From the IMG/VR virus record IMGVR_UViG_3300006201_000024: a DNA stretch of 56,911 nucleotides, one strand, 5' to 3'. The DNA comes from a virus. Below the pieces are notes generated by a model, which ran no database searches, was not told the DNA's origin, and saw only the letters and a program-made list of their open reading frames with translations. The position numbers and the translations under genes are program-made. Positions 20,805 to 54,909 of the stretch are shown here, piece after piece; position 1 is the stretch's first letter, and each line of letters starts with the position of its first letter.

Positions 20805-21444
20805 ATGATATATCAACAGACGGGTGGATCGCTTTCTAAAATTTCTCTGGGGGGGGGCAATCCAAGAATTTGAGAAGCGAATAAAAGAACTGGAGAGAGC
20901 GGATGAAGAAATTTTAGACAGGATATCTAGCGCAGAAAACAGCACCCCGATAGGAACCGTCATCTCTTTTATTGGAACAACCGCGCCGGAAGGATACCTT
21001 GACTGTGACGGAGGAATACACAGCATTAACGCATATTCACAGTTGGCTGAGCACTTTAGGGCTAATTTCGGGGTTGTGAATTATTTTGGCGGAGATGGCA
21101 CGACAACCTTTGCTGTGCCAGATCTGCGCGGAGAATTTTTGCGGGGAAGTGGAACGGCCGCGCGAAACACAGGAACCGGAGCAGCAGTCGGAGTACATCA
21201 GGATCCGACAAGCGTACCTTATATATTTGACACTCCCGATGCAGAAACTATTTTCATGAAATCTGATTTGGGATATGGAAATTATATAAGCAACGGAGAT
21301 TCATACAAGGGCGCAGATACACCCGTTAAACTATATCAAATCATGCCTGATCATGTATATGGCGACAATATATCTGATCGAATCAGTGCCACGATCAGGC
21401 CGACCAATACGGCGGTCATGTACTGCATAAAAGCCAAAAATTAA
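20805..21444 (+). CDS. Fibre-tip cassette 1, tail-collar domain; out of frame at G9 (phase OFF)
   Basis: AGGAGG plus ATG20805 reads MIYQQTGGSLSKISLGGG, then stops at 20871; the body is in the +1 frame to 21444 (GTTAPEGYLDCDG...FAVPDLRGEF collar motif); G8 would fuse them. Confidence 0.7.
20849..20857 (+). repeat. Poly-G tract, G9 (cassette 1)
   Basis: ctctGGGGGGGGGcaat. Confidence 0.95.
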
Positions 21445-21461
21445 AAAAGGAGTGTGTTGTC

Positions 21462-22040
21462 ATGGGAATGTACATACAGCGTGAAGGGAGTCTTAAACAA
21501 ATTGGGTGGGGGGGGGTATGCGATGAGGTCGTTAAAAGAATTGAAAGCATAGAAGATTCGCGCGGGGACAGCGAAACGTATGGGCTTGTAAGGCTGTGCG
21601 GGCTTTCCAGTGTTACAGAAAGCATGGGGCTTGCACTTCCCGCTTCAGAAAAGAATCCGGCAACTGAGGGGACACTGGCCCACAAAATAGAGATGCTGCA
21701 AAAAATAGAAAACGCATCCATACAGCTGGGGGAAGATGTAAAAGGCAATTCAATCAGGGGCGAAACGGCCGTAAGGATCGGGAATGCCGTGCATGTATCT
21801 ATTGACATAGTATTCAACAGTGGGATAGTTCCCGAGCTTAAAAAAGAGGTCAGGCTTGCAAAAATCAGCATTCCTCCTGCTGTTCTGACAACGTTTTACA
21901 TGATTGATTTAAATATGGATCGCACTGCAATCAAGGTCAGCGGCACAGGGTACATAACAACAGACGGAGACGTTATCGGGACATTTTTTTCGGCTGCGAC
22001 ATGGGATACGTACATATTTTTTTCATACCCCGCTGCATAG
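21462..22040 (+). CDS. Fibre-tip cassette 2; in frame through G9 (phase ON)
   Basis: AAGGAG plus ATG21462; MGMYIQREGSLKQIGWGGV..SETYGLVRLC..VTESMGLALPASEKNPATEGTLA; unique C-terminus. Confidence 0.8.
   Translation: MGMYIQREGSLKQIGWGGVCDEVVKRIESIEDSRGDSETYGLVRLCGLSSVTESMGLALPASEKNPATEGTLAHKIEMLQKIENASIQLGEDVKGNSIRGETAVRIGNAVHVSIDIVFNSGIVPELKKEVRLAKISIPPAVLTTFYMIDLNMDRTAIKVSGTGYITTDGDVIGTFFSAATWDTYIFFSYPAA
21508..21516 (+). repeat. Poly-G tract, G9 (cassette 2)
   Basis: gggtGGGGGGGGGtatg. Confidence 0.95.
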
Positions 22041-22064
22041 GCAATAACAGCAAAAGGAGAAATT

Positions 22065-22627
22065 ATGGGAATATATATACAAAGAGCAGGAGCGCTCAGC
22101 CTGGTTGGGGGGGCGCGGGAGCGTGGAAAGAGGTTGAGCAGATAAAAGATTCCATGCAGGATGCACTGGGCAGGATAGAACAGATAGAGCGCCCTGCCAC
22201 CGAAGACCATGCCGGAATCGTAAGATTGTGCAGGCTTGCTGATGTGACAAAATCAGACGGGTTGGCCCTTCCGTCATCCGAGAAAAATCCCGGAATACAG
22301 GGGACGCTGGCAGAGCAGATATCTAAAAATAAAGAAGCAATAAACGACCTGACATATTACGACAGCGTGACATATGACGGCCTTTCAACAATAGATGCGC
22401 TGAAAGAATATGTCACGCATGACAGGATCAAAGATAAAACACACAGGATCGCATGGATATACAACAGAGATGGCCTTATATTTGCTGACATTTCGCGTGA
22501 CGGAATATATATATTAGGGATTTCTATGTTTTTCACGCAAGCAGCTGCATATATAAAGTTTTTTGTTAACAACCAATCGCGCTTCTATTTGTACGATGTG
22601 CCGTTTACGGAGACGATCATCCAATGA
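22065..22627 (+). CDS. Fibre-tip cassette 3; out of frame at G7 (phase OFF)
   Basis: AAGGAGA plus ATG22065 reads MGIYIQRAGALSLVGG, then stops at 22143; the body is in the -1 frame to 22627 (AGIVRLC..VTKSDGLALPSSEKNPGIQGTLA); G8 would fuse them. Confidence 0.7.
22107..22113 (+). repeat. Poly-G tract, G7 (cassette 3)
   Basis: ggttGGGGGGGcgcg. Confidence 0.95.
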
Positions 22628-22665
22628 CACAGTAAAATTAAATTAATATTTAAGGAGATGTTTAT

Positions 22666-23254
22666 TTGGGAATATATGTACAGAAAAATGGAACCCTTAA
22701 TTTTGTTGGGGGGGGGTAGAAACGATCAGGAAACTGCACAGATAAAGGAGATGCTGCAGGATGTGCAGGACAGGACAAGCCGGATAGAAACGCTAGAGGC
22801 AACAAATACAGAACGCGGAATGGTTAAATTATGCAGCCGCGAAGATGTTACGGAGAGTGCAGGGCTTGCACTTCCTGCGAGCGAGAAAAATTCTGCCGTG
22901 CAGGGAACGCTTGCGCACAGGATAAGCCTTTTGGACAGGATTCTAGTGCCGGATCTCAGCAAAAGGTTCATTATCAAACCCTTTCCTTATACGGCACTTG
23001 AAAACGGATTTGTACAGTGCTACATGAGGGCACAGCCGCAACGTGCGTACTGCCTGCACATACTTGTAAATGGAGTTCTTGTTTATGGCTATTCGCACTA
23101 TTCAATCGGAGTAGATGACATAGCCATGTCACCCGCGATCAACGTAGAAAAAGGGGACGAAATAAATTGGAGAATGAATGCGGGTGGAACAGTATACGAG
23201 TTGGAATCGTGGTTTCTCCCGATAAAAAAAGTGAGCATTCAAGATTCGCCGTAA
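22666..23254 (+). CDS. Fibre-tip cassette 4; out of frame at G9 from the homologous TTG start (phase OFF)
   Basis: AGGAG, 8 nt, then TTG22666 reads LGIYVQKNGTLNFVGGG, then TAG at 22717; the body is in the +1 frame to 23254 (RGMVKLC..VTESAGLALPASEKNSAVQGTLA); G8 would fuse them. Confidence 0.65.
22708..22716 (+). repeat. Poly-G tract, G9 (cassette 4)
   Basis: tgttGGGGGGGGGtaga. Confidence 0.95.
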
Positions 23255-53849: not shown

Positions 53850-53921
53850 AAACTGAAAAATGAGTATCTTTTTCGTGAAACATCGGAAATGTTCGGCATG
53901 AGCCGTTATTACAACGTGGGA

Positions 53922-53947
53922 GGGCAGAACATGGATTCTGTCCTTTT
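53922..53947 (+). terminator. Rho-independent terminator
   Basis: GGGCAGAA/TTCTGTCC stem followed by TTTT. Confidence 0.7.
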
Positions 53948-54012
53948 GCGATTAACTGGACATTGATAACTGAATATTAGGTGGTAGTTTGTGGACTTCT
54001 GATAGTTTTAAC

Positions 54013-54046
54013 ATGGTACAAATACAATCTGAATGTGTGAGAAAAT
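54013..54046 (+). promoter_or_regulatory. Dispersed promoter-like motif, copy 7 (ATGGTACAA variant)
   Basis: ATGGTACAA (54013-54021), 19 nt, GAAAAT (54041-54046). Confidence 0.4.
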
Positions 54047-54135
54047 ATATATGTGGCTAGGGTAGCTCCCGAAAGGCAGAAAAGCCTATCTGCTTGCCAC
54101 AATTCCAAAATAGGCGCACAGAAAGGCTATGTGAA

Positions 54136-54909
54136 ATGAAATATATTGCAAGTTGGAGCGGCGGCAAGGACAGTACCGCAAGTATAATTTTGGCACATGA
54201 AAATAACGAACCGCTTGACCTTATTATATTTTCCGAGGTTATGTTTGATAAGAATATCAGCGGAGAATTGCCGGAGCATATAGATTTTATTAAAAACAAG
54301 TGCATTCCGTTGTTTGAAAGTTGGGGATATAAAACAAATATATTGCACTCCGAAAAGACATACCTTGATTCCTTCCATCATATCGCAACAAAAGGGAAAC
54401 GTATTGGGCGCAAACTTGGTTTTCCTATGTCTGGAAAGTGCGTGATAAATCGTGATTGCAAAATAAAGAAGATAAAAGACTTTTTTAAGACAGTAGATTA
54501 TGAATATACTCAATATATAGGAATTACCGTAGATGAGCCAATACGCCTTGATAGGGTTGTTAGGACAGCGAATCAAACATCTTTATTGCAAAAATACGGC
54601 TACACAGAGAAAATGGCATTTGAGTTGTGTGAGAAATATGGTTTATTATCTCCGATATATAGAATTTCAAACAGGGGGGGCTGTTGGTTTTGTCCAAACG
54701 CAAAAGACAGGGAATTAAAATACCTTAGAAACAACCATAGGGAATTATGGGGAAAACTTCTTGAATTAGAAAATGTGCCAGATTTGATTGGTTACAAATG
54801 GAATATGCTGGCGAAAACAAGCATACATGACAAAGAAGAACAGTTTTTCTGGGAAGATAACCAAATAAATCTATTTGACTATGCCAGAAGTTTAGAAACT
54901 ACCATCTAA
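54136..54909 (+). CDS. PAPS reductase-family protein (second copy; intact)
   Basis: MKYIASWSGGKDSTASI; NRGGCWFCPNA; contains the G7 tract. Confidence 0.8.
   Translation: MKYIASWSGGKDSTASIILAHENNEPLDLIIFSEVMFDKNISGELPEHIDFIKNKCIPLFESWGYKTNILHSEKTYLDSFHHIATKGKRIGRKLGFPMSGKCVINRDCKIKKIKDFFKTVDYEYTQYIGITVDEPIRLDRVVRTANQTSLLQKYGYTEKMAFELCEKYGLLSPIYRISNRGGCWFCPNAKDRELKYLRNNHRELWGKLLELENVPDLIGYKWNMLAKTSIHDKEEQFFWEDNQINLFDYARSLETTI
54674..54680 (+). repeat. Poly-G tract, G7, inside the PAPS reductase CDS
   Basis: aacaGGGGGGGctgt, encoding RGG; in frame. Confidence 0.95.

Follow-up and report, generated by a model that had tools for sequence, protein, structure and literature searches.

Long G tracts as probable on/off switches for a bank of tail-fibre tip genes in a temperate phage

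Why should a phage genome carry runs of nine or ten consecutive Gs close to the start codons of small genes? The question is raised by IMG/VR record IMGVR_UViG_3300006201_000024, a virus sequence of 56,911 nucleotides that was analysed over its whole length (referred to here as the window; all coordinates are given on its + strand). Six long G tracts in this sequence correspond to six tandem paralogous tail-fibre tip genes located at 20805-24490 (+), with one tract per gene. We consider it likely that the long G runs are contingency loci acting at the level of DNA, i.e. hypermutable homopolymers that serve as on/off switches for the tip genes.

A formal count returned nine runs of seven or more Gs, at positions 20849 (9 nucleotides), 21508 (9), 22107 (7), 22708 (9), 23322 (9), 23979 (9), 27364 (10), 37946 (8) and 54674 (7), all of them on the + strand. 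This list is identical to the one that a first-pass annotation of the sequence had compiled by eye. That annotation was also right in reporting no C run of seven or more, the longest being a single C6 at 35644, yet this absence is uninformative, because such runs were expected only 0.01-0.25 times. Its description of the genome as A+T-rich was overstated, with G making up 25.4% and C 17.2% of the + strand (42.6% G+C overall). Comparison with compositional null models, in the form of Markov-type expectations and shuffles, showed that the claimed excess over chance holds for the runs of nine and ten Gs. Six runs of at least nine Gs were observed against 0.08-0.39 expected under order-0 to order-4 models, and seven G9 words were found against 0.30 in dinucleotide shuffles, none of the 100 shuffles reaching seven. 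The distribution of run lengths has two peaks (17, 3, 2, 1, 5 and 1 runs of 5, 6, 7, 8, 9 and 10 Gs, respectively). For runs of at least seven Gs the same models predict 1.6-4.2 occurrences and, taken by themselves, neither the G8 run nor either G7 run exceeds chance. The excess therefore does not extend to the runs at 54674 (G7) and 37946 (G8), and the G7 at 22107 counts only through its homologous position in a tip gene. The bias towards the + strand is real, but it does not represent seven independent events. We rejected it as independent evidence, since it is explained by the paralogy of the six tracts, by glycine coding and by gene orientation, the + strand carrying nearly every gene of the window.

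The location of the tracts close to gene starts was confirmed. Counted from start codons backed by a ribosome-binding site, the tracts of the six tip genes begin at codons 15, 16, 15, 15, 13 and 19, and the G10 tract of a seventh gene begins at codon 14. Runs of G7-G10 at codons 13-19 of seven genes, where a change in length toggles between a full-length and a truncated product, are what a homopolymer contingency locus is expected to show. Each tip gene, termed here a cassette, contains in 5'-3' order a Shine-Dalgarno sequence, a start codon, a leader of 12-18 codons of the type M-x-I-Y-x-Q-x-x-G-x-L, the tract, a short coiled coil, a fibre-like motif that is also found in the upstream tail fibre gene, and a variable C-terminal domain. 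A cassette would be ON when the leader frame runs into the body (at G8 or G11 for five cassettes and at G9 for cassette 2), and OFF when the leader frame meets a stop within 1-10 codons. As sequenced, cassette 2 (21462-22040, +, with its G9 tract at 21508-21516) is the sole ON cassette and encodes 192 residues. Read from their natural starts, cassettes 1, 4, 5 and 6 (G9) and cassette 3 (G7) end after 16-26 residues, and all five come into frame at G8 or G11. These OFF cassettes, likewise on the + strand, are cassette 1 at 20805-21444 (leader 20805-20848, G9 at 20849-20857, Collar-domain body), cassette 3 at 22065-22627 (G7 at 22107-22113; on at G8), cassette 4 at 22666-23254 (TTG start, G9 at 22708-22716), cassette 5 at 23286-23892 (G9 at 23322-23330) and cassette 6 at 23923-24490 (G9 at 23979-23987); cassettes 1, 4, 5 and 6 are on at G8 or G11.

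Tract length was found to vary in the DNA of a single strain. The same phage was retrieved by exact-protein look-up from the JGI assemblies 3300006145, 3300006149 and 3300006217 and from the Logan assemblies ERR2497921 and ERR2497922. Comparison of the window with four other assemblies of the strain, over 58,402 nucleotides in all, revealed one substitution, whereas 2 of the 28 tract comparisons differed. In JGI 3300006145 the tract of cassette 2 is G8, which turns the window's ON gene OFF, and this is the sole difference across 12.4 kb. In JGI 3300006149 (L174) the tract of cassette 6 is G8, which turns the cassette ON, and again no other difference was found across 9,568 nucleotides. Tract length likewise varies far more than the surrounding sequence between closely related genomes, as is characteristic of contingency loci. 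Contigs also end within tracts, at 21508 and 27364 in ERR2497922, at 27364 in JGI 3300006204, and at others in relatives. These ends fit the presence of mixed tract lengths within samples; the same effect could arise from reads of poor quality at G runs. Among public contigs of this phage family, ends that fall exactly in poly-G are frequent (the ends of L002/L003, L013, L008 and L136 and the start of L184), so metagenome assemblies systematically break up and mis-call the arrays.

Relatives of the phage differ in the same manner. In DRR480514 (L173, 98.9% identical) cassettes 1, 2 and 3 have tracts of G7, G8 and G9, compared with G9, G9 and G7 in the window. Cassette 3 is at G9 in a 97%-identical relative (L001), as it is in L173 and L175, and its orthologue in L180 is at G8 and ON. 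Two near-identical Logan contigs (L002 and L003) have G9 and G10 at the same tract, and one cassette is at G9 in L181/L182 and at G11, in the ON state, in L180/L004. ON alleles were also found for cassette 1 (P0013, and L180-L183 at G8) and for cassette 5 (P0036, P0040, and L175-L179 at G8). Five of the six window cassettes occur both ON and OFF, and cassette 4 is always at G9 and OFF in the sampled loci, never ON. Arrays of relatives have between zero and three cassettes on, in differing combinations, and in related arrays of seven and of eight cassettes three are ON per array, again in different combinations. We rejected the possibility that an array never has more than one cassette ON, as the same strain has two ON cassettes in JGI 3300006149 and relatives have three.

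The same arrangement was found in other samples, in diverged phages in which all of the 40 distinct cassette types identified have a G run of 7-11 in the same place. Their 48 distinct alleles comprise three of G7, nine of G8, 31 of G9, three of G10 and two of G11; 11 alleles are ON and 37 are OFF, the ON share being inflated by loci that were retrieved via ON proteins. Public protein clusters at 90% identity for cassettes 1, 5 and 6 hold full-length sequences composed of the leader, two or three glycines and the body, which match the prediction for the ON state. A profile of the N-terminal 90 residues (leader, coiled coil and fibre motif) matched 568 public protein clusters at 50% identity. 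The best 150 of these matches include 109 short proteins, 72 of which have a Gly run within their first 28 residues, and many gene calls for these proteins start at the tract and take the form M-G-G-G. Protein-pattern scans of viral contigs gave no match. A leader-plus-G8 DNA pattern, with hits that were mostly false positives from high-GC genomes, located true arrays in one IMG/VR contig, one Eubacterium metagenome-assembled genome (MAG) and several metagenome contigs.

The first-pass annotation had suggested that the tracts themselves are selected for, and this is supported by glycine codon use, by the coding of Gly-Gly-Gly elsewhere and by the homopolymer retained in the same place in at least 40 cassette types. 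GGG accounts for 19% of glycine codons, and the 18 other Gly-Gly-Gly tripeptides in the analysed open reading frames (ORFs) are written with mixed codons, none of them as a G9 run. The leader DNA diverges considerably between cassettes, and the G run is retained. In comparisons with two relatives, the ratio of nonsynonymous to synonymous substitution rates (dN/dS) of the cassette bodies was 0.09-0.42, OFF cassettes included (0.14-0.42 for cassette 4). Judged by these values, the bodies are under purifying selection and the OFF genes are not decaying.

These observations are consistent with the following mechanism. Polymerase slippage during replication would add or remove one G in a tract, and each tip gene would switch independently, heritably and probably reversibly, giving up to 64 combinations on top of two tract-less fibre genes. 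Each lineage would carry its own combination of tips, and the population would be a mix of host-recognition types, which would amount to bet-hedging. G on the sense strand encodes a linker of two to four glycines between the leader and the coiled coil, able to tolerate three-base changes in length; this tolerance, along with common ancestry and the uniform orientation of the genes, accounts for the strand bias. The leader-plus-tract geometry is present in a seventh copy, which would gate a 54-codon gene beside the repressor. A scan of the array for promoters and terminators gave no convincing excess (12 promoter-like sites versus 8.9 in shuffles and 7 terminator-like sites versus 3.6); transcription of the cassettes is therefore probably shared with the late genes, with gating at the level of translation. 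We infer that the tips bind receptors and that host range changes as they switch, and the rate of switching is likewise a matter of inference.

The assignment of the cassettes to fibre tips draws on their neighbours and on their sequences. The array lies upstream of the holin and endolysin genes and downstream of two genes that have no tract. The first (19093-20271, +) is a tail fibre gene of 392 residues with a PHROG tail fibre match, which according to a motif alignment contains the fibre motif block common to the cassettes. The second (20291-20785, +) is a paralogous tip gene of 164 residues with a leader-like N-terminus, and is presumably always on. The body of cassette 1 contains a Pfam tail Collar domain and gave 25 PHROG matches, nearly all of them to tail-fibre, tail-collar or other tail-protein families; cassettes 2-6 were assigned by paralogy, fibre motif and position only. 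Sequence searches of the PDB returned zero matches.

Several points weigh against the interpretation of the tracts as DNA-level switches of host recognition. The tips are presumed to be receptor binders on the basis of one Collar domain, paralogy and gene position, and the AlphaFold model of cassette 2 was poor (predicted local distance difference test score, pLDDT, of 43.5). Tract lengths are taken from assembly consensus and may in principle include homopolymer errors, though a coverage-based G9 consensus is normally sound. The G10 tract showed no change in length in 5/5 full assemblies (the window and four others). Finally, the clear majority of alleles are G9, a length that leaves nearly every cassette design OFF and that might be a functional recoding site.

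Two other readings give RNA-level events at G9 a part. The first, which we regard as unlikely, is that the leader and the polyG tract form a portable module, in which the usual G9 state leaks a little of every tip through RNA slippage and a DNA slip to G8 turns one tip fully on, and which has also been grafted onto the regulator-like gene at 27325-27489. The second, in our view distinctly improbable, is that the system works by RNA recoding, such that G9 followed by a +1-frame body is the functional design, a small fixed amount of each tip arises from a +1 shift of the ribosome on GGG codons or from transcriptional slippage, and the changes in DNA are a side effect. Although 31 of the 48 alleles are G9 and 30 of these 31 are OFF by exactly one base, orthologous tract lengths are not conserved (7-11), and at G7 or G10 a shift in the other direction would be required. 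A stop codon directly follows the tract in cassette 4 and in some relatives, but the 0-frame stop lies at a varying distance from the tract. Recoding is favoured by the fact that nine nucleotides is the RNA-DNA hybrid length at which RNA polymerase begins to slip efficiently, and by the likeness of a G run to the Shine-Dalgarno-like stimulator of prfB; a ribosomal shift, however, needs no nine Gs, and no conserved stimulatory structure was found downstream of the tracts (z-scores from +1.1 to -2.2). In addition, cassette 2 and several relatives are already in frame in DNA, and full-length in-frame ORFs exist. RNA-level slippage, which had been raised at the outset as an alternative to DNA switching, is thus not supported as the main mechanism, because tract length differs in the DNA of otherwise identical assemblies. 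It could act as an extra layer on DNA switching that provides a basal level of tips, though such a layer is not needed.

It is highly improbable that the tract serves chiefly as a joint for recombination, or as a glycine-linker coding element, for the exchange of leaders and bodies, with frame changes being incidental. Such exchange does take place, as one leader can be found with several bodies and one body with several leaders, joined at the tract (L175 and L180 are among the examples), and L001 (around 3604-3660) differs from the window by a cassette-sized indel of 650 bp bounded by the tracts at 20849 and 21508. Nevertheless, nine bases are very short for homologous exchange, for which the conserved leader could serve, a linker needs no homopolymer, and single-base length changes as the sole differences between identical genomes would be left unexplained. 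A sequencing or assembly artefact can practically be dismissed: homopolymers are error-prone and contigs do break at them, but the same tracts occur at homologous codons in JGI, ENA and Logan assemblies and in many diverged phages, and the length changes are accompanied by coherent changes in ORFs.

DNA-level switching of the tip genes thus remains the reading that we favour, and the G10 tract (27364-27373) may extend it beyond the array. This tract lies at codon 14 of a 54-codon gene (27325-27489, +) that adjoins the gene for a CI-like repressor, is convergent with it, and is in frame as sequenced; G9 or G11 would truncate the product to 16-20 residues. In spacing and length its leader matches the fibre leaders. 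That the gene switches is suggested by the length of the tract and by two contigs that break at it, and if it is gated, control of late genes or of lysogeny would itself be phase-variable. A relative carries a tract-less analogue at the same place. The C-terminal half of the product is paralogous to two small ORFs located upstream of the tape-measure gene, at 11282-11380 and 11401-11502; the three tiny ORFs share an R-F-L-K-A-I-Y-I-S-like core, and only the third has a G10 tract.

The two remaining runs gave no sign of belonging to the system. The G8 run at 37946-37953 (+) is intergenic, about 20 nucleotides before the ATG of the next gene. We considered it as a promoter or ribosome-binding-site switch and rejected this possibility, as it has the same length in two other assemblies and no promoter match. 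The G7 run at 54674-54680 (+) is inside a PAPS-reductase-like gene (54094-54909). The phage has at least two such genes, this one with a strong PHROG match and one at 36657-37424 with the Pfam domain PAPS_reduct; a possible third at 37415-37891 has a weak PHROG match.

What kind of phage carries this array? The window is a complete circular phage genome assembly, as indicated by an exact terminal direct repeat of 70 bp (positions 1-70 and 56842-56911). Its structural and lysis genes include those for the portal, terminase, tape measure and tail proteins and an Amidase_2 endolysin, and its other genes include those for the CI-like repressor, a Sie-like membrane protein, a helicase-primase, a methyltransferase and a tyrosine integrase. 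This gene set, with its structural, lysis, repressor, Sie-like and integrase genes, marks it as a temperate, tailed phage. The integrase gene (48220-49497), which encodes a Phage_integrase domain and a Tn916-type DNA-binding domain, comes after a minor capsid protein gene (46607-47884) and is distant from the repressor module, an unusual site for a prophage integrase. Neither the DNA of the locus nor the cassette 2 protein had a match among 50,697 deposited phage records. The only host-assigned relative lies within a Eubacterium (Clostridia) MAG; a prophage search of 400 Clostridia genomes gave weak matches only and did not identify the host.

If the proposed switching is correct, stochastic control of host recognition by polyG tracts would not be an oddity of Campylobacter phages, and a modular, bank-style version of it would exist in temperate phages. 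A single phage genome sequence would then under-report host range. Practical consequences arise for annotation, as gene callers mis-annotate the cassettes, most of which are called from false internal starts, and as assemblies break at the tracts. The tracts could be locked on or off, which would offer a simple handle for mapping each tip to the host surface that it recognises.

Known systems share parts of this design. In programmed recoding, exemplified by the prfB +1 frameshift, transcriptional slippage in dnaX and IS elements and the phage G/GT frameshift, a slippery run is followed by a change of frame; the tracts described here differ in that their length is not fixed, a conserved stimulator is lacking and in-frame DNA alleles are present. 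The invertible G/C segment of Mu and P1 and the diversity-generating retroelement of Bordetella phage BPP-1 diversify the receptor-binding end of the fibre within one lineage. In contrast, the window cassettes are all direct, the three weak inverted repeat pairs that were found flank none of them, and no reverse transcriptase was detected among the ORFs checked, in a scan that was not exhaustive. Bacterial simple sequence repeat (SSR) contingency loci of Campylobacter, Neisseria and Haemophilus resemble the tracts more closely, with a homopolymer near the 5' end of the coding region, typically G9, in which the gain or loss of one base toggles the frame, but the window locus is viral, and what is gated is an entire bank of paralogues. 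Contingency loci in which polymerase slippage at repeats acts as bet-hedging have been described in T2/T4 and other coliphages, where repeats are under-represented in tail fibres, at 0.77x of the expected number (Gomez, Barrick, Waters, bioRxiv 10.1101/2025.10.21.683753). In the window, by contrast, the repeats are concentrated in the fibre tips.

Our literature search found no paper on polyG-gated banks of fibre tips in phages outside those of Campylobacter. Hypermutable polyG tracts are reportedly present in the receptor-binding protein genes of Campylobacter Fletchervirus phages, in work said to be that of Sorensen et al. 2021 in Cell Rep. As that work is summarised in one later article (PMC8713573, summarising Sorensen et al. 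2021), these phages encode as many as four receptor-binding proteins, of which two are phase-variable by polyG. The window phage differs from them in being temperate, with an integrase, a CI-like repressor and a Sie-like gene, and its host-assigned relative is in a Eubacterium MAG rather than in Campylobacter. In place of two variable proteins among at most four, its family has six to eight paralogous tip cassettes in tandem, and each window cassette has the same short leader with the tract at a fixed codon. Given the lack of sequence similarity to any deposited phage, the two systems appear to be analogous rather than homologous. The likeness lies in the outcome, predicted in the present case, whereby several receptor-binding proteins per phage, some of them switched by polyG length, give rise to phenotypically mixed phage populations.

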